A stretch of DNA of 64,000 nt, taken from the NCBI GenBank assembly GCA_018817315.1, contig JAHITV010000018.1:12012-76011 (forward strand). The letters run 5' to 3'. Of the stretch, positions 1,348 through 55,588 are shown piece by piece (position 1 is the stretch's first letter; each line of letters begins with the position of its first letter). The notes beneath the pieces are model-generated. The model was not told the origin of the DNA, did no database searches, and worked only from the letters and a program-made list of their open reading frames with translations. This DNA is from Patescibacteria group bacterium. GTDB lineage: Bacteria > Patescibacteriota > Patescibacteriia > UBA1558 > UBA10009. A program made the position numbers and the translations under genes.

Positions 1348-4224
1348 ATGGCTTTATATTCAACTTCAGCTGATGAGAAATTTACCGAAGATTATGCCGT
1401 TAAAACAGCCGAGGAAGAGGAATTTAAGGATAATCATGATAATTTTGTTTCAACTGGTAAAAAAACAGGAGGTTTAGAGGTAAAAAGACACTTCACCAAA
1501 GAAGGCATGCATCCTTATGAGGAAGTTAATTGGGAATTTAGAGAAGCTTCTATTACCAATGACAAAGGAGAGGTAGTTTTTTCCCAAAAGGAGGTGCAAA
1601 TCCCCAGTTCTTGGTCGCAGACCGCCACTAACATTGCTGTTTCCCATTATTTTCGCGGCCGTCTAGGCACTAAAGAAAGAGAAACAAGCGTTAAACAGAT
1701 GGTGGATCGGGTAGCTAAGACCATTACCTCTTGGGGCAAAGAGCAGAATTACTTTAAAACAGAGGAGGACGCGGATATTTATGAGAAAGAATTAACCTAT
1801 TTACTAATTAACCAGTACGCCGCTTTTAATTCACCGGTTTGGTATAATGTTGGTTTAAGCGAGCACCCCCAATGCAGTGCTTGTTTTATTAATTCTGTCC
1901 AGGACGACATGCGTTCCATTCTTAATTTAACAGCTACAGAAGGCATGTTATTTAAATATGGCTCTGGTACCGGCACTAATCTTTCTGTTTTAAGATCCTC
2001 TAAAGAATATCTGTCTGATTCTTCTGGTAAAGCTTCTGGACCAGTATCTTTTATGAAGGGTTTTGATGCTTTTGCCGGAGTAATCAAATCAGGCGGCAAA
2101 ACCAGAAGAGCGGCCAAAATGGTTATTTTAAACATTGATCATCCGGATATAAAAGAATTTATTAATTGTAAAGCTTTAGAAGAAAAAAAGGCCTGGGCTT
2201 TAATAGAAATGGGTTATGACGGAACATTAAATGGTGAAGCTTATGCTTCTGTTTTTTTTCAGAATGCCAATAATAGCGTGCGCGTTACTGATGGGTTTAT
2301 GCAGGCCGTGGAAAATGACGGTCAATGGAAAACCAGATATGTAAAAACTAAAGAAGCAGCTGATACTTACCGTGCCAGAGATTTAATGAAGCAAATAACC
2401 GAAGCTGCTTGGATTTGCGGTGATCCCGGCTTACAGTTTGATACTATCATTAATGAATGGCATACCTGTATTAATTCCGGACGCATTAATGCCTCTAATC
2501 CTTGCAGTGAATTTATGTTTTTGGATGATTCATCCTGTAATTTAGCTTCACTTAACTTAATGAAATTCAGAAACAAAGATAATGGCTTTAATATTGAATC
2601 TTTTAAAAAAGCAGTAGAAATAATTATTATTGCTCAAGAAATAATCGTGGATAACGCCAGTTACCCCACACCAGCCATTACTCAAACTTCTTATGATTTT
2701 AGACCATTGGGTTTAGGTTATGCTAATTTAGGAGCACTATTAATGAGTTTGGGTTTGGGTTATGACGGTGATGAAGGCCGCAATTATGCTGCAGCAATCA
2801 CTTCTTTAATGACTGGACAGGCTTATTTACAATCAGCAAAAACCGCTGCTTTTAAAGGACCTTTTAAATATTTTGAGCTAAATAAAGAGCCAATGTTAAA
2901 AGTTATTGGTATGCATCAGGTTGCTGCCAATAAAATTGACAACAGAGGAGTAGCAGCTAGTTTATTGCAGGCCGGTAAAGAGGTTTGGGACAAAGCTTTG
3001 GTTTTTGGCAAGCAGGCAGGTTTTAGAAATGCTCAAGTTTCTTTACTTGCTCCTACTGGTACTATTGGTTTTTTAATGGATTGTGATACTACCGGTGTTG
3101 AACCGGATATTGCCTTGGTTAAATATAAATGGTTGGTAGGGGGTGGGATGATGAAGATTGTTAATAGTGTTGTGCCTTTAGCTTTGAAAAATTTAGGTTA
3201 TTTACCGGAAGAAATTGATAGTATTTTAGAATATATTGATGAAAACGAAACTATTGAGGGGGCGCCTAAGTTAAAGGAGGAGCATCTACCTGTTTTTGAT
3301 TGCGCCTTTAAACCTAAAAAAGGTAAACGTAGTATTCATTATATGGGGCATATAAAAATAATGGGAGCAGTGCAACCGTTTCTTTCTGGGGCAATTTCTA
3401 AAACTGTTAATATGCCCCATGAAGCTACAACCGAAGATATAGAAGAAGTTTATTTGACTGCTTGGAAACTCGGTATAAAAGCCATTGCTATTTATCGTGA
3501 TGGTTCTAAACGTACTCAACCACTTACTACTTCACTTGATGGTGAAGCAAAAGTTAAAAGCGAGGTAATAAAGCCTGCCAGAAAAAGATTACCGGATGAA
3601 CGGCAAGCCATCACTCATAAATTTTCCATTGCTAATCATGAAGGTTATATGACCGTAGGTTTGTATGAAAACGGAGTACCAGGGGAAATATTTATTACTA
3701 TGTCTAAAGAAGGCAGTGTTATTTCTGGCTTGATGGATTCTTTTGCCACAGCTGTTTCTGTGGGATTGCAATATGGCGTGCCTTTAAAAGTTTTAGTTAA
3801 TCGTTTTATTCATTCCCGTTTTGAACCTTCTGGTTTTACTAATAATCCTAATATTAGAATAGCTAAATCAATCGTGGATTATATTTTTAGATGGTTGGCT
3901 TTAAAATTTTTGCCGCCGGAAGATTTGATGTATGTAGGGCTTAATAATGTGGAGTCGCTAACTAATGGCAATGGCAAAAGTGATTTAGAAAAACTGACAA
4001 AAGTGGCTGATGAAGAAGCTATTAAACATGAAAAGAATGTTAATGAAGATACAGAGGAAGAGAACATAATTTATCAACAGGTGACTATGGATTTAAGAGG
4101 TGATAAAGAAACTTTTGATATGCAATCTGATGCTCCGATTTGCGATACTTGCGGTTCTATGATGGTTAGAAACGGGTCCTGTTACCGGTGTATGAATTGT
4201 GGCAGTACCAGTGGTTGTTCTTAA
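1348..4224 (+). CDS. nrdJ: Class II (adenosylcobalamin-dependent) ribonucleotide reductase
   Basis: The N-terminal 'EVQIPSSWSQTATNIAVSHYFRG' is NrdJ-type. The active-site 'SNPCSEF' (N-x-C-x-E) is present, as is a C-terminal CxxC...CxxC zinc ribbon. Length is 958 aa. Confidence 0.85.
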   Translation: MALYSTSADEKFTEDYAVKTAEEEEFKDNHDNFVSTGKKTGGLEVKRHFTKEGMHPYEEVNWEFREASITNDKGEVVFSQKEVQIPSSWSQTATNIAVSHYFRGRLGTKERETSVKQMVDRVAKTITSWGKEQNYFKTEEDADIYEKELTYLLINQYAAFNSPVWYNVGLSEHPQCSACFINSVQDDMRSILNLTATEGMLFKYGSGTGTNLSVLRSSKEYLSDSSGKASGPVSFMKGFDAFAGVIKSGGKTRRAAKMVILNIDHPDIKEFINCKALEEKKAWALIEMGYDGTLNGEAYASVFFQNANNSVRVTDGFMQAVENDGQWKTRYVKTKEAADTYRARDLMKQITEAAWICGDPGLQFDTIINEWHTCINSGRINASNPCSEFMFLDDSSCNLASLNLMKFRNKDNGFNIESFKKAVEIIIIAQEIIVDNASYPTPAITQTSYDFRPLGLGYANLGALLMSLGLGYDGDEGRNYAAAITSLMTGQAYLQSAKTAAFKGPFKYFELNKEPMLKVIGMHQVAANKIDNRGVAASLLQAGKEVWDKALVFGKQAGFRNAQVSLLAPTGTIGFLMDCDTTGVEPDIALVKYKWLVGGGMMKIVNSVVPLALKNLGYLPEEIDSILEYIDENETIEGAPKLKEEHLPVFDCAFKPKKGKRSIHYMGHIKIMGAVQPFLSGAISKTVNMPHEATTEDIEEVYLTAWKLGIKAIAIYRDGSKRTQPLTTSLDGEAKVKSEVIKPARKRLPDERQAITHKFSIANHEGYMTVGLYENGVPGEIFITMSKEGSVISGLMDSFATAVSVGLQYGVPLKVLVNRFIHSRFEPSGFTNNPNIRIAKSIVDYIFRWLALKFLPPEDLMYVGLNNVESLTNGNGKSDLEKLTKVADEEAIKHEKNVNEDTEEENIIYQQVTMDLRGDKETFDMQSDAPICDTCGSMMVRNGSCYRCMNCGSTSGCS

Positions 4225-4284
4225 TTTTTTGCATTCGGTTGAGTTTTGGTATACAATGTTTATTGTTAATTGAAATAAATTCAG

Positions 4285-4309
4285 CCTTGTCAAGCTCAGC
4301 TTGACAAGG
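4285..4309 (+). terminator. Perfect 11-bp hairpin ccttgtcaagc-tca-gcttgacaagg downstream of nrdJ (terminator, or P1 of the downstream riboswitch)
   Basis: Perfect inverted repeat read directly. It is not followed by a T-run, so its function is uncertain. Confidence 0.4.
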
Positions 4310-4311
4310 GG

Positions 4312-4495
4312 CGATCAGGGAATGGGGTGACTTCTCGACAAGCTCGAAGTTCGAGAATATTCCTCAGCAGTCGCGCTACTGTAATTTAACCTTGATTTTC
4401 TAAGGGTTTTAATATAAGCCCTTCGGGACTTCGACCGAGCTTAGTCGAAGTCTAAACTCAAGGTTGATTAGCCAGAGAACTGATCCTGGATTATT
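4312..4495 (+). ncRNA. Candidate cobalamin (B12) riboswitch aptamer
   Basis: 'cAGGGAAtggGGTGA' (4316-4330) resembles the GGAA..GGTG core. 'GCAGTCGCGCTACTGTAA' (4366-4383) matches the conserved GCnGnCCCGCnACnGTnA element at 17 of 18 constrained positions. 'AGCCAGAGAAC..CCTGG' (4470-4489) is a degenerate B12-box (AGYCMGGAGACCKGCC). Several internal hairpins are present. It sits upstream of a putative B12-uptake operon. Confidence 0.45.
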
Positions 4496-4598
4496 ATAAT
4501 TTTACTTACCTTACTTTTCGCGTTAAAGAGGGGTAGTAATTTTCATCTTTTGTTTTCTCAAGGGGTTTTAAAAAGACTCTTTGAAAAAATAAAAGATA

Positions 4599-4630
4599 AT
4601 TACCCCTCTCTTAAAAAAGAGGGGTAATTT
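4599..4630 (+). terminator. Expression-platform terminator hairpin aattacccctct-cttaaaaa-agaggggtaatt followed by TT; an alternative pairing partner 'agaggggtagtaatt' lies at 4522-4536
   Basis: Perfect 12-bp stem. The upstream copy of the 3' arm could form a competing antiterminator structure, which is the classic riboswitch/attenuator layout. It sits 40 nt upstream of ORF 4671. Confidence 0.5.
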
Positions 4631-4670
4631 TATGGATTTATTCAATATTAAAAAGTATTAAATAAAAATT

Positions 4671-6452
4671 ATGAAAGCCAGAATTAAAATTTTATTTATG
4701 ACTATTTTAATGGTCATAATCAGTTTCCCTGCTAGCTTATTAGTTAAAGCAGAAGTCAGTCAACTAACAATTGATTATTTATTAGCCCAAACCCAGGATC
4801 AATGGATTACTATGGCTTTAGCTGCCAGCGGTAGCAGTAATCTAGATTTGAGTTATTTGGATAATTTTAGTGGATCTTCTGCTAATGATTTTTCTAAAAC
4901 CGTTCTAGCTTTAACCGCAGCTAGTCAGAATCCCTACAATTATAACGGCACTGACTTTATTCAAGGACTTAGTAATTATTATCAGAATAATCAGATCGGT
5001 TCACCGTCTTTATTAAGCGATGATTTTTGGGCTATTCTGGCTTTACGGTCAGCTGGCGTAGAAATCAGCGATAACATTATTCAAGACAGCAAAAATTTTA
5101 TTTTAACTAATCAAAATCCAGACGGCGGCTGGAGTTATGCACCAGGAACTGAAAGTGATACTAATGATACGGCAGCTGCTATAATGGCTTTGTTAGATGC
5201 CGGTCTTTTGTCGAATAATAGTCAGATTCAGTCAGCTGTCAGTTATTTACACGCGCAGCAAAATCCAGACGGCGGCTTTGCTTTTACTGAGGGCGGTCAA
5301 TCAGATTCTGGTTCTGATGCCTGGGTAATCAGTGCCATTTATAAACTAGGAGACGATCCCTTAACCTGGATACAAGGAGAAAATAATCCTCTCGGTCATT
5401 TAGAATCTTTAGGTTTAGCTGACGGTTCGTTTAAATGGATAGCTTCTGATACTCAAGGCAATCCTTTAATGACTGCTTATGCCGCCATAGCTTTAGTTGC
5501 TAAATTTTATCCAGTCAGCTATTATCAGCCTTCTTCCTCCGATTCTCAATTACATCATTTAAGAATTGAAGGAGCAAATAATACTTATTGTGACGCAGAA
5601 GTAGAAGCGGCTAATGCCTTAGAGATTGTGGAAAACGGTGCTACTGTTTGTGGTTATACTTATGAAATTGAACAAACCAGCTGGGGTTCATATTTGGTAG
5701 CTATTAATAATGAAGTTGCCACCGGCACTTTTGGTTGGATGTATCGGGTTAATTGGCTTTCACCTATGGTTGGTGCCAATGATTATATTTTGGAAGAAGG
5801 AGATGAAGTATTATGGGCTTACAGTGAATGGGGCTATCAACCATTAAAGATAAGTTTATCCAACGATCAGGTTCAACTAGGAGAAGAAGTTACAGTCACT
5901 GTAGAATATTTTAATGAAAACGATTGGTTAGCTGCTAATGAAGCCACAGTGTACGCTGGCAGTCAAACTTTGACTACTAATCCCAGTGGGCAAGTTACTG
6001 TTTCTTTTGCTGAAGTTGGTGCTTATAAAATATACGCTGAAAAACAGAATTTTATCCGCAGTCCCAGATTAAGTTTAGTGGTCGGTAGCGGCATTTCCCA
6101 AACAGTGAACATGATTGTGAATATTGATAATTCTACTCCCACAGATTATTTATCCTTTATTATTGATCCTACTGATTTGGATTTTGGCACTTTAAGGCCT
6201 GGTGGAAATACTCTCAATAATCTTACGGTTATTAATAACGGTACAGTTACTTTTCATCTAGAAGCTATAGTTAGCGGAGATTCTTTATTTGAAGGAAATA
6301 CTTACTTAAATGAATCTTTGTGGGAAGATTATAGCGATAATTATGGTGTTAATCAGTCAAAGGAGGTAGAGGTTGATTTAAGAGTTCCAGAAGATTTCAA
6401 CAGCAGTGGTCAAAAAAATGGCAGTTTGATTTTTTGGGCTTCTAGAAATTAA
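4671..6452 (+). CDS. Secreted transcobalamin-like protein: prenyltransferase/squalene-oxidase alpha/alpha-toroid repeats + DUF4430-like beta domain + C-terminal beta-rich extension
   Basis: N-terminal signal/TM. Repeated 'QNPDGGWSYA' and 'QNPDGGFAFT' (QxxDGGW repeats). The central 'GTFGWMYRVNW...GANDYILEEGDEVLWAY' matches the DUF4430 (transcobalamin beta-domain-like) pattern. Length is 593 aa. Confidence 0.5.
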   Translation: MKARIKILFMTILMVIISFPASLLVKAEVSQLTIDYLLAQTQDQWITMALAASGSSNLDLSYLDNFSGSSANDFSKTVLALTAASQNPYNYNGTDFIQGLSNYYQNNQIGSPSLLSDDFWAILALRSAGVEISDNIIQDSKNFILTNQNPDGGWSYAPGTESDTNDTAAAIMALLDAGLLSNNSQIQSAVSYLHAQQNPDGGFAFTEGGQSDSGSDAWVISAIYKLGDDPLTWIQGENNPLGHLESLGLADGSFKWIASDTQGNPLMTAYAAIALVAKFYPVSYYQPSSSDSQLHHLRIEGANNTYCDAEVEAANALEIVENGATVCGYTYEIEQTSWGSYLVAINNEVATGTFGWMYRVNWLSPMVGANDYILEEGDEVLWAYSEWGYQPLKISLSNDQVQLGEEVTVTVEYFNENDWLAANEATVYAGSQTLTTNPSGQVTVSFAEVGAYKIYAEKQNFIRSPRLSLVVGSGISQTVNMIVNIDNSTPTDYLSFIIDPTDLDFGTLRPGGNTLNNLTVINNGTVTFHLEAIVSGDSLFEGNTYLNESLWEDYSDNYGVNQSKEVEVDLRVPEDFNSSGQKNGSLIFWASRN

Positions 6453-6467
6453 AGCAATTTTTCTCAA

Positions 6468-7046
6468 ATGATTATTATGAAAAGAATATTATTAATTTTA
6501 TTTGTTACTTTAGGATGGATTTTAACAGTTTCAGCAGCAGGAATTGCCGTTACTCCCACTAAATTGTTTTTTCAGTCAGAAGTAAAGAGTTCTAAAACTC
6601 AAACATTGACAGTTAAAAATATTTCACCATCGCCTTTGATTTATAATCTTTACAGCGATGAACTTACTGATCAGATTGTTATTCAACCGCAGTCTCTGCG
6701 TTTGGATCCAACTGAAAGCCAGAGAGTAGAAATTACCATAAAGCCACGTTACACAGGCGTTTATATAACCAATATTTCCATTTTGGCTCAAAATTTAGAT
6801 AAACGTGAGTTTAATGCTATTGCTGCTATTAAAGTTCCTTTAGAGATGAGAGTCTTTCCTAAAGAGGGATCATTTTTGTCCAAAATGTATTTATGGTTTA
6901 TAATTAGTTTTACTGCTTTAGTAATTTTGTTAATCATCTTTATAATTATCAGCAAAAGAAAAAAACGTTCGTTTTGGCAGAAAGTCGGACAAGCGGTCAA
7001 TTTACTGGATCATCATAAAAAACCGTGGTGGAAAAAATTTATTTAA
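6468..7046 (+). CDS. Hypothetical surface protein with N-terminal signal peptide and C-terminal TM anchor plus basic tail (SKRKKR)
   Basis: Called from hydrophobicity pattern only. Length is 192 aa. Confidence 0.4.
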   Translation: MIIMKRILLILFVTLGWILTVSAAGIAVTPTKLFFQSEVKSSKTQTLTVKNISPSPLIYNLYSDELTDQIVIQPQSLRLDPTESQRVEITIKPRYTGVYITNISILAQNLDKREFNAIAAIKVPLEMRVFPKEGSFLSKMYLWFIISFTALVILLIIFIIISKRKKRSFWQKVGQAVNLLDHHKKPWWKKFI

Positions 7047-7055
7047 AAATTTGAT

Positions 7056-7616
7056 GTGGATAATATGTCAGAAAACACCTTTGGCAAAATTCATGTTTAT
7101 ACCGGCGATGGTAAGGGTAAAACAACAGCGGCTTTAGGTTTGGCTATTAGAGCGTTGGGTAATAATAAAAAAATAGCTATTATTTATTTTGATAAAGGCG
7201 GAGATTTTTATAATGAAAGAAAAGTTTTAGACCAGTTAATAGGTAATAATTTTCAGTATTTTGTCACTGGTCAGCAAAGATTTGATCCCCTGAAAAAAGT
7301 TTTTAGATTTGGCGTAGAAGCAGAGGACAAAGCTGAAGCTTTAAGGGGATTAAACATTATTGAAAGATTATTCAATGAGGCCACCGTAGATTTATTGATT
7401 CTGGACGAAATCAATCCAGCCATTCATTTAGGTTTAGTGGAACTGGAAATGTTTTTGAAAATTCTGGAAAAAAGACCTTCCCAGATAGAATTGATTTTAA
7501 CCGGCCGTAATGCAACTCCTCAAGTTTTAGCCAAAGCAGATTTAATCACAGAAATGAAGGAAGTTAAACATTATTTTAATGAAGGCCTTAAAGCCAGAGA
7601 AGGTATAGAATATTAA
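7056..7616 (+). CDS. cobA: ATP:cob(I)alamin adenosyltransferase (CobA/CobO/BtuR family, EC 2.5.1.17)
   Basis: The P-loop 'KIHVYTGDGKGKTTAALGLAIRALG' matches the CobA signature 'VFTGNGKGKTTAAFG'. 'LILDEI', 'LILTGR' and C-terminal 'VKHYFNEGLKAREGIEY' align with the CobA C-terminus. Confidence 0.85.
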   Translation: MDNMSENTFGKIHVYTGDGKGKTTAALGLAIRALGNNKKIAIIYFDKGGDFYNERKVLDQLIGNNFQYFVTGQQRFDPLKKVFRFGVEAEDKAEALRGLNIIERLFNEATVDLLILDEINPAIHLGLVELEMFLKILEKRPSQIELILTGRNATPQVLAKADLITEMKEVKHYFNEGLKAREGIEY

Positions 7617-7633
7617 GAATTTAATAATAAATT

Positions 7634-8074
7634 ATGAAAAATATTAAATTTGTTATCATTGCTTTAATTTTTTTGGTGGTAGGGTTTTTTGCTGGTCAAA
7701 GTTATCAGTTAAATCCCGTTGTTCAAAACTCAACCGTGGAGAATAAAGAACAGCAGGAATTATCTGATATTACTATTTCAATCAAGTTTGACGAGAATAA
7801 TATCAGAGAGATTCAGAATTTAATTATTTCCCAAGATCAAACAGTTTTGGATTTACTTACCAAAGTTGCCGAGGAAAATGATCTAGCTTTTAAAACCCAG
7901 GATTACGGCGATTTAGGTATGCTAGTCACTCAAATAGGGGATAAAGTTAATGGTCAGAATAATAAATATTGGCAGTATTATATTAATGGAGAATTTGCTG
8001 CTGTCGGTGCCGATCAATATAAACTTACAGGCAAAGAAAGAATAGAATGGCAATTTAGCGAAAGTGAATTTTAA
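7634..8074 (+). CDS. DUF4430-family (transcobalamin beta-domain-like) secreted/membrane-anchored protein
   Basis: N-terminal TM/signal. 'KYWQYYINGEFAAVGADQYKLTGKERIEWQF' fits the DUF4430 pattern (W.YyvNg...ga..y.L.dgD.I.w.y). Length is 146 aa. Confidence 0.55.
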   Translation: MKNIKFVIIALIFLVVGFFAGQSYQLNPVVQNSTVENKEQQELSDITISIKFDENNIREIQNLIISQDQTVLDLLTKVAEENDLAFKTQDYGDLGMLVTQIGDKVNGQNNKYWQYYINGEFAAVGADQYKLTGKERIEWQFSESEF

Positions 8075-8101
8075 TTAATAATTTTTTATAATATCAACTA
8101 T

Positions 8102-8653
8102 ATGAAAAGTAAAACTTTAATTTTGGGAATTTTAATTTTATTTATTGTTGGTCTGGTTATGAGACTAGCACCACATCCAGCAAATTTTAGCCCAGTGGCA
8201 GCTATAGCTTTATTTGCTGGTTATTATCTATCTAAAAGATGGGCAATTATTCTGCCAATAGCGGTAATGTTGTTAACAGATATCTTGATAGGTTTTTATG
8301 ATTGGAAATTAATGCTGGCGGTGTACAGTTGTATAATGCTGGCAGGTGTAGTTGGCATAATAATCAGAAAAAGTAAGAGTGTTTTGAATGTGTTAACTGC
8401 TACTTTGGTAATTTCTTTAAGCTTTTTTATTGTCACTAATTTAGCAGTCTGGTTATTTTCTCCTTGGTATGCCCATAATTGGTCTGGTTTGATGTTATGT
8501 TATACTTTAGCGGTGCCATTCTTTAAAAACACTTTAGCAGGAAATCTATTTTTTGTAACTGTTTTCTTTGGCAGTTTTGAATTAATTAGACAGTTTTTAG
8601 CTAAAGGAGTTATTGATTTAAGACAGAATTATAAATCAACATTTTTGAAATAA
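8102..8653 (+). CDS. Small polytopic membrane protein (about 6 TM), ECF S-component-like; possible vitamin/cobalamin transporter by genomic context
   Basis: 183 aa and about 6 hydrophobic helices, a size and topology typical of ECF S-components. Function is inferred only from neighbours. Confidence 0.3.
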   Translation: MKSKTLILGILILFIVGLVMRLAPHPANFSPVAAIALFAGYYLSKRWAIILPIAVMLLTDILIGFYDWKLMLAVYSCIMLAGVVGIIIRKSKSVLNVLTATLVISLSFFIVTNLAVWLFSPWYAHNWSGLMLCYTLAVPFFKNTLAGNLFFVTVFFGSFELIRQFLAKGVIDLRQNYKSTFLK

Positions 8654-11200: not shown

Positions 11201-11435
11201 TGGTACCCCCGCTAGGATTTGAACCTAGAACCTTCTGGTCCGACCCCGCACCAATAATTTTTTATTTTATAATTTCTTTTGGTGTCCCTGGGAGGATTCG
11301 AACCTCCAATTACGGGTCCGAAGCCCGTTGTGATATCCATTTCACCACAGGGACAGCAAGAGAGATTATAAGATTAGAATTTAGATTAATAAATAACGAG
11401 ATTGGTGCGGGGCTATCCAATTGAGCTACGAGGGC
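11201..11435 (-). ncRNA. Interrupted/split tRNA-like gene. The 5' part has acceptor + D-arm (11401-11435). The 3' part has a long variable arm + T-arm + acceptor + CCA (11201-11258). A 12-bp extended helix (ccccgcaccaat / attggtgcgggg) brackets a 142-nt insertion that contains tRNA-Arg
   Basis: Manual folding. Acceptor gccctcg pairs with cgggggt (two G-U). T-arm is ctagg-ttcaaat-cctag. A CCA is encoded. A 4-bp variable arm suggests class II. The anticodon loop is replaced by the long helix plus insertion. Confidence 0.45.
11280..11354 (-). tRNA. tRNA-Arg (anticodon UCG), CCA encoded
   Basis: Manual fold. Acceptor gtccctg/cagggac. D-stem gtga/tcac. Anticodon stem acggg/cccgt with loop cTTCGGa. 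T-arm ggagg-ttcgaat-cctcc. Confidence 0.75.
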
Positions 11436-16571: not shown

Positions 16572-17178
16572 ATCAGCCGAAAGTTTTATCGTAAATGAGG
16601 CAGTCAAAATATTAAAGAAAGGCAAAATAATTGTTTATCCCACAGAAACAGCTTATGGACTGGGAGCTGATTTTTCTAATCCCCAAGCCCTAAAGAAAAT
16701 TTATCAGATTAAAGGCAGAAGTTTTAAAAAACCACTGTCAATTATAGTAAGTGATTTTAAGATGGCTAAAAAATTAATTAAGTTTGATAAATTTTCTTTA
16801 AAACTTGCCAAAAAATATTGGCCAGGACCTTTAACTTTAGTTTTAGAGCCCACCAAAGTCATAGAAAAGTTTCAGCAAAAAGGTCAATTACCTCAAAATT
16901 CGATTGCTTTGAGAATTTCTTCCAATCAACTGATTACTAAAATAGTTAAAAAATTAGGCCGACCAGTTACGGCTACTAGCGCTAACTTTGCTGATCAAAA
17001 AGAATGTTATACTGCAAGAAAAGTTTTAAAAAGTTTTAAGAATAAAAAATATCAACCAGATTTAATTATTGATGCAGGTGTATTGCCTAGACGAAAAACT
17101 TCAACTATTGTTAATGTTATAGATAGTCAGATAAAAGTTTTAAGAAAAGGCACGATAAAATTAAATCCTAAATTCTAA
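16549..17178 (+). CDS. tsaC: L-threonylcarbamoyladenylate synthase (YrdC/Sua5 domain)
   Basis: 'KIIVYPTETAYGLGADFSN' is the YrdC signature. The start is probably the internal Met at 16549 rather than ORF start 16507. Confidence 0.75.
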   Translation: MKKRELSKSAESFIVNEAVKILKKGKIIVYPTETAYGLGADFSNPQALKKIYQIKGRSFKKPLSIIVSDFKMAKKLIKFDKFSLKLAKKYWPGPLTLVLEPTKVIEKFQQKGQLPQNSIALRISSNQLITKIVKKLGRPVTATSANFADQKECYTARKVLKSFKNKKYQPDLIIDAGVLPRRKTSTIVNVIDSQIKVLRKGTIKLNPKF

Positions 17179-17284
17179 GTACTAAATACCGTTCGGTTTG
17201 TCTCGATGCCGACTCAACACGGAGGCGAGCTCACGGCCGAATGGGTATTAGGATTTAGAAATTAGAATTTAGTATTTATCCTTT

Positions 17285-37021: not shown

Positions 37022-37101
37022 TATATTTTAAGTCAATATAAGGTTGACTTAAAGTTAAACTTTTGTTAAACTTTTATTATTAAGAAGCTAACTGATAAAT
37101 T

Positions 37102-37320
37102 ATGAGCAATATAATAGGTTTAAAAGAGTTAAGGCAAAATATGCCGGCTTATGCTAAAAAAGTTGAAAAAGGTCAATCTTTTGTGGTAGTTAAACAATCT
37201 AAGCCTTTGTTTAAAATCACTCCCTTGGAACAGGAAAGCGAGGAATGGGAGGAAGTAATTGATTTTACCAAAATTAAAAGAGGCGGAGTTAAATTAGATC
37301 AGCTACTTAGTCGTCTCTGA
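37102..37320 (+). CDS. Phd/YefM-family type II antitoxin
   Basis: 72 aa. 'LKELRQNMPAYAKKVEKGQSFVVVKQSKPLFKITPLE' fits the Phd pattern. It lies 4 nt upstream of the toxin. Confidence 0.55.
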   Translation: MSNIIGLKELRQNMPAYAKKVEKGQSFVVVKQSKPLFKITPLEQESEEWEEVIDFTKIKRGGVKLDQLLSRL

Positions 37321-37324
37321 ATTT

Positions 37325-37573
37325 ATGGACAAAATAGCTAAAGCTTTAAAACTTTTAAATCAGAGAGAAAAAAATACTGTCGCTGATATCTTAACTTCGC
37401 TTGAGAATCGGCTTTTTAAAAATTTAGACATCAAAAAACTTAAAGGCCATGATGATATTTTTAGGGCGCGAAAAGGAAAAATAAGGATTATCTACCGTTT
37501 AGTTAAAGGCAATATTATGATTTTAGCTATTGAGCGAAGGTCAGAAAATACGTATAAGAAGTTTAAAAAATAG
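37325..37573 (+). CDS. RelE/ParE-family type II toxin
   Basis: 82 aa. 'RARKGKIRIIYRLVKGNIMILAIERRSENTYKKF' fits RelE/ParE. Confidence 0.6.
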   Translation: MDKIAKALKLLNQREKNTVADILTSLENRLFKNLDIKKLKGHDDIFRARKGKIRIIYRLVKGNIMILAIERRSENTYKKFKK

Positions 37574-37578
37574 TTTGT

Positions 37579-46027: not shown

Positions 46028-47005
46028 ATGAGAAATTTTAAGGAAAAAATCAAAACCTATTTTTTAAATCTTCCAAAAGGAATTTTACCGGTAAGTGTTG
46101 ATCCAGATCTTAAAGTTGAAAAGATTAGTGGCGGTGATTATAATTTGAATTTTAAAATTAATGTCAATGGAGAAAAATTTTTACTGCGACTTAACGTTGA
46201 AGCACAAAGTGGTTTAAAGAATCAAATTATGTATGAGTACAAAACCTTAAAGTTCCTGGAACCGTATAAAATAGCGCCAAAAGCGTATTATTTGGATGAT
46301 TCTAAGAAACATTTCCCCTTTGGTTTGATAATTGAAGAGTTTATAGCGGGAAAACGACTGGAAATTTCTTTGGCTTCGTTAAAAAAGTTAGCAAAAACTT
46401 TGGCTCGTTTGCATACCATTCCTTTAGGGAATAGAAATTTTTTGATAAGGTGGCAAAGCCCTTTAAAGGAACAATTGAAATTTGTAACTAATGAGTTTAA
46501 TCGATACAGGCAGAGAAAAATTATTAACAAAGAGTTTATTAATATTGGTAGTAAAATTATTAACAAAGTAAAAAGCCGGTTTAGAGTGATTGAGAAAAAA
46601 TTAAAACCTACTAGTATTATTCATACTGACTTGGTTGCAAGTAATATTATTGATACCGGCTATCAGGCATATTTAGTTGATTGGGAAAAAGGTCGGATTG
46701 AAGATCCTAGTTATGATATAGCGTTTTTCCTTTGCCCATTGATGAATTTATGGGATTGGCCTAGGATACTTACAGAGAAAGAAAAGGAATATTTTCTAAA
46801 AGTTTATGAAGAGGAAAGCGGAGACAAAGCTATCAGGACAAGAATAAATTACCGAATCCATCTGATTATTTTACATTTAGTATTATGGGCGGGAAACCGC
46901 ATTGCCGATGTTAAAGAGGGTTTAATAAGTAAAGAGTTGGGTAGGCAAAATTATGTCAGGTATAGAAAATTATTTGATCTTAATCAACTAAGAAAATATT
47001 TATAA
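46028..47005 (+). CDS. Protein-kinase-like phosphotransferase (APH/choline-kinase family)
   Basis: The Brenner-type motif 'IIHTDLVASNII' and 'YLVDWEKGRIEDPSYDIAFF' (DxE...D) are present. The start was moved to the internal Met so that it follows the paralog-6 stop. Confidence 0.55.
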   Translation: MRNFKEKIKTYFLNLPKGILPVSVDPDLKVEKISGGDYNLNFKINVNGEKFLLRLNVEAQSGLKNQIMYEYKTLKFLEPYKIAPKAYYLDDSKKHFPFGLIIEEFIAGKRLEISLASLKKLAKTLARLHTIPLGNRNFLIRWQSPLKEQLKFVTNEFNRYRQRKIINKEFINIGSKIINKVKSRFRVIEKKLKPTSIIHTDLVASNIIDTGYQAYLVDWEKGRIEDPSYDIAFFLCPLMNLWDWPRILTEKEKEYFLKVYEEESGDKAIRTRINYRIHLIILHLVLWAGNRIADVKEGLISKELGRQNYVRYRKLFDLNQLRKYL

Positions 47006-47009
47006 AAGT

Positions 47010-55422: not shown

Positions 55423-55496
55423 GGTGCTGTAGCTCAGGTGGTTAGAGCGCCTGTCTGATAAACAGGAGGTCGGAGGTTCGAGTCCTTTCAGCACCA
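55423..55496 (+). tRNA. tRNA-Ile (anticodon GAU)
   Basis: Manual fold. Acceptor ggtgctg/cagcacc. D-arm gctcaggtggttagagc. Anticodon stem cctgt/acagg with loop cTGATAa. T-loop ttcgagt. Confidence 0.8.
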
Positions 55497-55514: not shown

Positions 55515-55588
55515 GGCGGTGTAGCTCAGGTGGTTAGAGCGCCTCCGTGACATGGAAGAGGTCGCGGGTTCGACTCCCGACACCGTCA
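55515..55588 (+). tRNA. tRNA-Val (anticodon GAC)
   Basis: Manual fold. Acceptor ggcggtg/caccgtc (one G-U). D-arm gctcaggtggttagagc. Anticodon loop gTGACAt. T-arm gcggg-ttcgact-cccga. Confidence 0.75.

Follow-up and report, generated by a model that had tools for sequence, protein, structure and literature searches.

The 446-nucleotide (nt) spacer at 4225 to 4670 of the 64,000-nt stretch of DNA from an uncultured Patescibacteria bacterium analyzed here (the window) lies on the + strand between nrdJ and a gene for a 593-amino-acid (aa) DUF4430 protein, and it very probably holds a cobalamin (corrinoid) riboswitch of the Cbl-I type, which would act as a B12-dependent transcription attenuator before an operon for B12 scavenging and adenosylation. 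A cobalamin riboswitch at this place had been proposed in an earlier note on the same DNA. That identity is now supported by matches to the cobalamin riboswitch clan in homologous operons, by the score of a covariance model built from those operons, by covariation, and by the B12-related genes downstream. Riboswitches of this kind and the way they work are already well established, and what is new here is a divergent member in a poorly studied phylum. A full-text literature search returned no paper combining Patescibacteria, cobalamin and riboswitch. If the assignment is right, the default Rfam cut-off misses a real riboswitch, which bears on the annotation of the candidate phyla radiation (CPR)/Patescibacteria, where few regulatory RNAs have been described.

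The spacer is as long and as densely structured as the earlier note had it. It ranks fourth in size among the 46 gaps of the window that are free of open reading frames (ORFs; median gap, 39 nt), and positions 4270 to 4640 fold at -135.6 kcal/mol, against -87.1 ± 5.6 kcal/mol for shuffled sequences (z = -8.6). The GC richness also ascribed to it holds for the aptamer part (42.4% versus 34.2% in the window) and not for the whole spacer (34.5%) or the expression platform (25.3%).

Conservation of the leader among Patescibacteria

We scanned positions 4200 to 4700 in a sensitive targeted search, the check that had been suggested for the proposal, and RF00174 matched 4265 to 4504 over its full length (model positions 1 to 189) with 26.8 bits (E = 5.8e-5), below its gathering score. 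RF00174 was the top-scoring member of Rfam clan CL00101 on the window. Since this result was borderline, comparative evidence was sought, and 80 genomic loci with genes for relatives of the 593-aa protein were collected (designated by L and a number where they must be told apart). A cobalamin-clan match above gathering was located upstream and on the same strand in 10 of the 19 homologous loci scanned (RF01482, up to 74.6 bits; RF00174; RF01689). Of nine further loci, seven have sub-threshold clan matches at that same place; L001 and L043, which are the closest relatives, are among the seven. In these two relatives an nrdJ-like ORF stands directly upstream, and nrdJ Pfam domains were found in the upstream ORF of L090 and L093.

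A covariance model, R1, was seeded by 18 leaders of homologous operons, with the window excluded. MAFFT/RNAalifold on these leaders gave only P4, P5, and P6, without recovering P1/P3 and P13; the R1 structure (P1/P3, P4, P5, P6, and P13) was written by hand from individual folds, followed by covariance-model re-alignment. R1 scored positions 4283 to 4548 of the window at 57.9 bits (E = 5.4e-10), its sole match in the 64 kb. Besides, it detected 68 elements in 637 kb, all but one of them on the strand of the gene and upstream of it. An R1 element on the + strand was present in 63 genome loci, that is, in essentially every Patescibacteria homolog with upstream DNA, and the 18 loci without one are archaeal or Chloroflexota homologs or have no upstream DNA. 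The seed includes loci in which RF01482 exceeds gathering (L003, L014, L015, and L021), and the window element is thus homologous to threshold-passing elements.

Furthermore, R1 matched five extra close relatives from metagenome contigs with upstream DNA (L084 and L090 to L093) at 56 to 114 bits. L094 (52% identity) gave no R1 match at E ≤ 0.01 in its 704 nt of upstream DNA (1 to 704), and it is the only Patescibacteria-like locus having a leader apparently without the element. A metagenome scan with the window protein returned one close locus only, L084 (60% protein identity); the contigs found in the exact-protein look-up (P0005) keep 63 to 128 nt upstream of the gene, which is no usable leader.

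In the alignment of the 68 sequences (A5), which was fitted to the model's own structure, 86.7% of the cells are paired, compared with 60.5% in shuffles, and the covariation score is 0.571 versus 0.183 (reached by 0 of 500 shuffles). Pairing falls to 37 to 56% when the partners are slid by one to three columns. All modelled helices covary across the 68 elements.

Several loci carry more than one element. Two cobalamin riboswitches lie within about 1.4 kb in L015 (1400-1568 and 2766-2940), L022 (1476-1644 and 2767-2951), and L017 (2127-2264 and 2785-2951), and L025 has two that are divergently oriented (2764-2928 on the + strand and 2503-2674 on the - strand). These pairs presumably sit before successive genes.

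Aptamer, predicted kissing loop, and expression platform

The aptamer extends from about 4273 to 4495, and all pairs listed for it are canonical. The layout of P1, P2, P3, P4, and the P6 extension is reproduced by the unconstrained minimum free energy (MFE) structure of 4270 to 4500. The start proposed earlier, 4312, has to be moved about 40 nt upstream to take in the 5' strand of P1 and the P2 hairpin. P1 (4274-4284, AAU-A-AAUUCAG, with 4486-4495, CUGGAUU-AUU) has 10 canonical pairs and appears both in the MFE structure and in the RF00174 alignment. The P2 hairpin (4285-4309), of 11 base pairs (bp) between CCUUGUCAAGC and GCUUGACAAGG with the loop UCA, stands between P1 and P3 and aligns to P2 of RF00174, and in L084 this place is taken by a P2 hairpin with another sequence. 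P3 consists of six Watson-Crick pairs (GAUCAG, 4313-4318, with CUGAUC, 4480-4485); the helix covaries across the family and reads AAUCAG/CUGAUU in L001, a compensatory change. It overlaps the motif AGGGAA (4317-4322), within which lies the conserved GGAA of J3/4. P4 (UGGGG, 4323-4327, with CCUCA, 4362-4366) is 99.3% paired across the 68 elements, with compensatory changes.

L4 is made up of UGA, a 27-nt insert at 4331-4357 (stem 4332-4338/4351-4357), and UAUU. A hairpin insert at one fixed L4 site (UGA, hairpin, AAAU) occurs in 21 of the 68 elements, with lengths from 12 to 87 nt and unrelated sequences (for example, in L011:472-682, L018:2665-2859, and L042:2523-2765, besides the window insert). 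Because 21 elements carry an unrelated hairpin at exactly the same site, the comparison indicates that the insert is not a defect.

The motifs AGGGAA and GGUGA (4326-4330), named in the earlier note, are present. The same applies to the core element GCAGTCGCGCTACTGTAA at 4367-4384, which differs from GCnGnCCCGCnACnGTnA at one position, G4373, and to the degenerate B12 box, of which both parts, AGCCAGAGAAC (4470-4480) and CCTGG (4485-4489), were found. The core, GCAGUCGCGCUACUGUAA in the RNA, recurs as the same or a near-identical segment in many homologous leaders. It contains P5 (4369-4370/4376-4377), L5 (UCGCG, 4371-4375), and the 5' strand of P6 (CUG, 4379-4381), which is followed by UAA. 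The 3' strand of P6 (CAG, 4473-4475) is part of the B12 box, after which the 3' strands of P3 and P1 follow to 4495. Between the two strands of P6 lies an extension (4388-4465), in which an 8-bp stem (4388-4395/4458-4465) surrounds the hairpins 4402-4423 and 4426-4453 to give a three-way junction, as in the MFE structure; near relatives (L001, L083, L043/L093, L090, and L084) also have long P6 extensions. Thus, the four-way junction P3-P6 and the core motifs (GGAA, GGUGA...AUUCC, GCnG-L5-CnACUGUAA, and AGCCAG) are all present in the window.

The Cbl-I class is defined by a P2 module together with a long P6 extension (PMC7367189), and the window has both a P2 loop-stem-loop and a large P6 extension. 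The RF01482 or Cbl-IIb-like layout, with continuous P1-P3 lacking P2 and with a short P6 hairpin, does not describe the window, which has P2 and a P6 extension of 72 nt, whereas most sibling leaders are compact and RF01482-like.

Some words recur in the P6 extensions. The 13-nt word CGAGCUUAGUCGA (4436-4448, in a hairpin of the window P6 extension) is identical in the P6 extension of L043/L093, CGACAAGCUCGA in the window L4 insert (4336-4348) resembles CUUCGACAAGCUC in the P6 extension of L084, and the motif CCUUCGAC recurs in the P6 extensions of L090, L043, L093, and L084. Such words may represent an element conserved for a tertiary contact, or else a module that has been shuffled.

The aptamer is connected to the terminator by the P13 hairpin (4502-4539), which was not part of the earlier description. 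Internal loops divide its 13 bp (-10.7 kcal/mol), and it corresponds to the 3' hairpin of RF01482. Within its loop, L13 (UCGCGUU, 4518-4524), the segment CGCG (4519-4522) can form four Watson-Crick pairs with 4372-4375 of L5. In every leader, P1 is followed by a hairpin whose loop carries the motif CUCUUCG-NNN, and this hairpin is the counterpart of P13/L13 of RF01482. The L5-L13 combinations fall into the types AUCCG-CGAGAU, UGCCG-CGAGCA, GGCCG-CGAGCC, CCCCG-CGAGGG, UCCUAG-CUAAGGA(G), and UCGCG-CGCG, the last being found in the window and about ten other loci. None of 5000 permutations reached the complementarity of the cognate L5-L13 combinations, and this held when the variable positions alone were scored. 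In L084 the combination is UAGCG-CGCU, which departs from that of the window by two compensating changes. Since L5 and L13 covary across the leaders and in L084, the apparent mismatch of the core at G4373 is best understood as one half of a co-varying kissing-loop pair. The leader family thereby constitutes a natural series in which covariation of L5 and L13, the two sides of the kissing loop, can be followed.

A subtype found in 16 loci (e.g., L036:2228-2379, L038:2773-2935, and L028:2211-2353) has L5 UCCUAG with L13 CUAAGGA(G). Its kissing loop probably sequesters a Shine-Dalgarno (SD)-like sequence, giving translational control; transcriptional and translational platforms would then both occur within one operon family.

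The expression platform of the window covers 4502 to 4631. A predicted terminator (4598-4631) has a perfect 12-bp stem of AAUUACCCCUCU (4598-4609) and AGAGGGGUAAUU (4618-4629) with five G-C pairs, an 8-nt loop (CUUAAAAA), and the tail UU(AUGGAUUU), so that the stem is followed by UUAUGGAUUU. The perfect stem agrees with the earlier note, whose coordinates (4599 to 4630) were one off. An AU-rich hairpin of 24 bp, H1 (4545-4597), lies between P13 and the terminator, and an equivalent hairpin, likewise long and AU-rich, appears in the folds of L001, L083, L043, L002, L003, L011, L090, and L092. In the 3' arm of P13, the strand AGAGGGGUAGU (4527-4537) can pair over 11 bp with 4599-4609 to form an antiterminator helix enclosing H1. 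Such a pairing had been foreseen, with the upstream strand given as 4522 to 4536, to which one base must be added. At -15.7 kcal/mol the antiterminator duplex is the strongest among the 11 elements with printed energies (the window and 10 relatives).

As the antiterminator would draw one strand from the 3' arm of P13 and the other from the 5' arm of the terminator, the three predicted helices are mutually exclusive. The antiterminator/terminator design of the earlier proposal is thus present, and it would work through the P13 hairpin and the kissing loop, which that proposal did not contain. In the nascent transcript 4502-4612, the MFE structure consists of the antiterminator (4527-4537/4599-4609) and H1 at -37.8 kcal/mol versus about -33 kcal/mol for P13 with H1, a difference of about 5 kcal/mol. 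For the full transcript, the MFE structure is P13, H1, and the terminator (-50.9 kcal/mol), and a full-length platform folded without the 5' arm of P13 did not form the antiterminator, the terminator always winning thermodynamically. With the terminator state as the global energy minimum of the complete transcript, the switch should decide kinetically.

Similar platforms follow the related elements. A terminator-like hairpin with a U-tract was found within 150 nt after 61 of 67 family elements, a conservative and noisy count, as the automatic terminator finder mis-called some loci (e.g., L014). Among the seven relatives closest to the window, the terminator stem shows covariation, and the tails after the relatives' stems are UUUCGUUUUU (L001), UUCGUUUA (L083), UUUGUUUAU (L043), UUUUGUUUAA (L003), and AAUUUGUUUAUU (L090). 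The 3' arm of P13 pairs more strongly with the cognate 5' arm of the terminator than with non-cognate ones, and 37 of 5000 permutations reached the observed mean. Spacer matches to Phe_leader, PyrG_leader, PyrR, and several microRNA (miRNA)/small RNA (sRNA) families all fell on the terminator and H1 hairpins, far under gathering, and were set aside as generic hairpin matches.

From this arrangement, the switch would most likely operate as follows. Upon corrinoid binding, the L5-L13 kissing loop would form and stabilize the weak, internally looped P13; with P13 locked, the 5' arm of the terminator would remain free, the terminator would form, and transcription would stop before the operon. If no ligand is bound, the 5' arm of P13 would be displaced by that of the terminator as soon as the latter has been transcribed, giving the more stable antiterminator around H1, so that RNA polymerase would read through and the uptake and adenosylation genes would be expressed. 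The most plausible effector is adenosylcobalamin, because the architecture is that of Cbl-I, the neighboring NrdJ depends on adenosylcobalamin, and the operon encodes an adenosyltransferase.

Objections and alternative explanations

Several observations weigh against this assignment. The whole-window Rfam scan at the gathering threshold did not find a cobalamin riboswitch and returned three tRNAs only, and the targeted RF00174 score does not reach the gathering score of 31.5 bits. The RF00174 alignment of the window contains large insertions and some non-canonical pairs, and L4, normally a 7-nt T-loop, is split by its insert. The U-tract of the predicted terminator is short and interrupted (UUUUAUGGAUUU; two U's lie inside the stem). 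Conservation of the antiterminator is statistically modest across the family and not evident in L084. The pair counts of the 68-sequence alignment are somewhat inflated by the way it was fitted, a bias shared by the slid controls. The shortfall of the RF00174 score is attributable to the 27-nt insertion in L4, an insertion of about 70 nt in P6, and a mis-registered P3 in the alignment. The miss by Rfam is likely caused by the L4 hairpin and the P6 extension, both of them insertions specific to the lineage, together with the shifted kissing-loop sequence.

The alternative that deserves most attention, rather improbable in our estimation, accepts a genuine aptamer with an output other than intrinsic termination. 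The hairpin 4598-4629 would then act on mRNA stability, on Rho loading, or on translation (of a mini-ORF at 4632-4661 or from the start at 4671), or the element would mainly serve as a B12-conditional 3' end of nrdJ. The weak U-tract speaks for this, with two of its four U's in the stem, as do the start codon lying 41 nt past the hairpin, the AUG at 4632 that overlaps the tail, and the fact that no separate nrdJ terminator is visible in 4225-4597. The sibling subtype, which probably sequesters the SD-like AAGGAG in L13, indicates moreover that outputs vary within the family, although the window is without a sequestered SD-like sequence. On the other hand, a stem with a U-tract directly after P13 in nearly all of the members examined and the covariation of the terminator stem argue for termination, and the three exclusive helices have the energy order required by the published termination model (PMC10327014).

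That the element is a decayed, nonfunctional relic, in which the L4 insertion, the C-to-G change in L5, and the low score reflect lost ligand binding, seems very improbable. It would agree with an RF00174 score under gathering, with the interrupted L4, and with the departure of L5 from the UCCCG consensus (PMC10327014). The L5 change is, however, matched by a complementary L13 change in about 10 independent leaders, and the L4 inserts of the related elements are always hairpins, of unrelated sequences. All helices of the window are perfectly canonical, the remaining core positions compared, including the B12 box, match the consensus, and the element is kept in essentially every Patescibacteria homolog. 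Least credible of all is the view that the spacer holds no riboswitch and is a structured nrdJ 3' untranslated region (UTR) or a cluster of palindromic repeats with B12-box-like words arising by chance. Three hairpins do share CAAGCUC/CGAGCU-like words, and the default Rfam scan is empty at the spacer; nevertheless, the element accompanies the DUF4430 operon with or without nrdJ upstream, and every helix as well as the pseudoknot covaries. This view appears effectively refuted by the R1 score, the helix covariation, and the L5/L13 permutation test.

Within the preferred reading of a Cbl-I-type attenuator, a bolder version is doubtful, yet of interest. The window and its nearest relatives might form a distinct Patescibacteria sub-lineage of Cbl-I, marked by the hairpin-split L4 T-loop and palindromic CGCG/CGCG kissing, with altered tertiary docking and possibly altered corrinoid selectivity, and the element might in addition be a B12-conditional intercistronic terminator of nrdJ transcripts. 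If so, nrdJ transcripts would end when B12 is sufficient and extend into the scavenging operon when it is scarce.

Genomic setting and comparison with known cobalamin riboswitches

Upstream of the spacer, nrdJ encodes a B12-dependent ribonucleotide reductase (NF005122, 1456 bits), with its stop codon at 4222-4224. Downstream, the operon that would be regulated (4671-8653, + strand) comprises the genes for the 593-aa protein with alpha/alpha-toroid and DUF4430 domains (4671-6452), an Ig-like protein (6468-7046), the CobA/BtuR corrinoid adenosyltransferase (7056-7616, 183 bits), a second DUF4430 protein (7634-8074), and a DUF6580 membrane protein (8102-8653). The leader is thus located 5' of B12-related genes (CobA/BtuR, two DUF4430, and DUF6580), as the earlier note had it and as is expected of a cobalamin riboswitch. 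It is a reasonable reading that the operon serves B12 acquisition and activation, with strong evidence in the case of CobA and suggestive evidence in that of the other genes.

The 593-aa protein is identical to an NCBI entry labelled "Patescibacteria group bacterium." Its alpha/alpha-toroid (prenyltransferase/squalene-cyclase-like) is followed by DUF4430 and then by a C-terminal Ig-like region, a domain order that recalls transcobalamin/intrinsic factor, and DUF4430 is weakly similar to the C-terminal part of transcobalamin-1 (4KKI residues 327-431, E = 0.2). It may be a surface corrinoid-binding protein. At least 442 relatives were found (E ≤ 0.001, among 8000 candidates scored), mostly in Patescibacteria and also in Chloroflexota/Dehalococcoidia and Bathyarchaeia. 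The DUF6580 protein (residues 9-157 versus 17-163) is weakly similar, over nearly its full length, to a 182-aa "Membrane protein" chain of PDB entry 6FNP (E = 0.07). We take this chain to be CbrT, the S-component of a cobalamin energy-coupling factor (ECF) transporter. No ECF A or T components were seen among the genes of the operon. A widespread, uncharacterized operon for DUF4430/alpha-toroid surface proteins would thereby be tied to B12 physiology in presumed cofactor scavengers.

A consensus scan between the nrdJ stop codon and P1 gave a candidate sigma-70-like promoter, TTTGCA-18-TACAAT (4228-4257, + strand), with 9 of 12 consensus matches, which is not above shuffle expectation; the implied transcription start is at about 4264. 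TATAAT-like boxes occur at the equivalent place in L001 and L090. The case for this putative promoter is weak, and it is possible, alternatively, that transcription from nrdJ reads into the spacer and that the element is an intercistronic attenuator.

A mini-ORF of 9 codons (AUG GAU UUA UUC AAU AUU AAA AAG UAU UAA, 4632-4661) begins in the terminator tail, 39 nt ahead of the start annotated at 4671. The real start codon of many relatives, unlike that of the window, directly follows the U-tract. Elsewhere in the window, three other long stretches are without an ORF of at least 90 aa (16572-17284, 713 nt; 37022-37578, 557 nt; and 46567-47009, 443 nt), and the whole-window scan gave no Rfam match at the gathering threshold in them. 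The tRNA genes that were its sole matches at that threshold are an adjacent pair (55423-55496 and 55515-55588) and one on the - strand (11283-11354).

Among known systems, the corrinoid riboswitch of Priestia (Bacillus) megaterium metE offers the closest parallel in mechanism. It is repressing and transcriptional, its logic has been shown by compensatory mutagenesis, and its antiterminator must be more stable than the internally looped P13 (PMC10327014). In both systems L5-L13 stabilizes P13, internal loops weaken P13, and the antiterminator is favored unless the kissing loop forms, the mechanism in the window being inferred. The window shows the metE-like energy order, with a weak P13 and the nascent antiterminator fold ahead of P13 with H1. 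It differs from metE in its L5, UCGCG (with L13 CGCG) in place of the consensus UCCCG, in the 53-nt AU-rich hairpin between P13 and the terminator, in the 27-nt L4 hairpin insert, and in governing an uptake/adenosylation operon, not metE.

Features of the Cbl-I adenosylcobalamin class (RF00174; e.g., Thermoanaerobacter tengcongensis, PDB 4GMA; PMC7367189) that recur in the window are the P3-P6 junction, a P2 loop-stem-loop placed between P1 and P3, an extended P6, a B12 box, and a predicted L5-L13 kissing loop. The window differs in its score under the RF00174 gathering threshold and in the L4 T-loop interrupted by an inserted hairpin. In Cbl-I, the adenosyl pocket is shaped by conserved distal elements of P7-P11, among them the J11/10 adenosines; the P6 extension of the window is a three-way junction, whose two hairpins might have counterparts among these elements.

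The RF01482 "AdoCbl" (Cbl-IIb-like) elements of Patescibacteria, such as those of L003 (74.6 bits) and L016 (71.3 bits), share with the window the position, the gene family, the core, the P13 loop motif (CUCUUCG...), and the terminator arrangement, and they are homologous to it by the lineage model. In these elements P1 and P3 form one continuous helix, a P2 hairpin is missing, and P6 is no more than a short hairpin. By contrast, long P6 extensions are found in the window, L084, L090, L001, L083, and L043, of which the window and L084 possess P2 in addition. Finally, Escherichia coli btuB has a cobalamin riboswitch for B12 uptake in which an L5-L13 kissing loop controls the platform (PMC10327014). 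The btuB element acts mainly on translation through a hairpin at the ribosome-binding site (RBS), whereas the window has a predicted terminator and no sequestered RBS.

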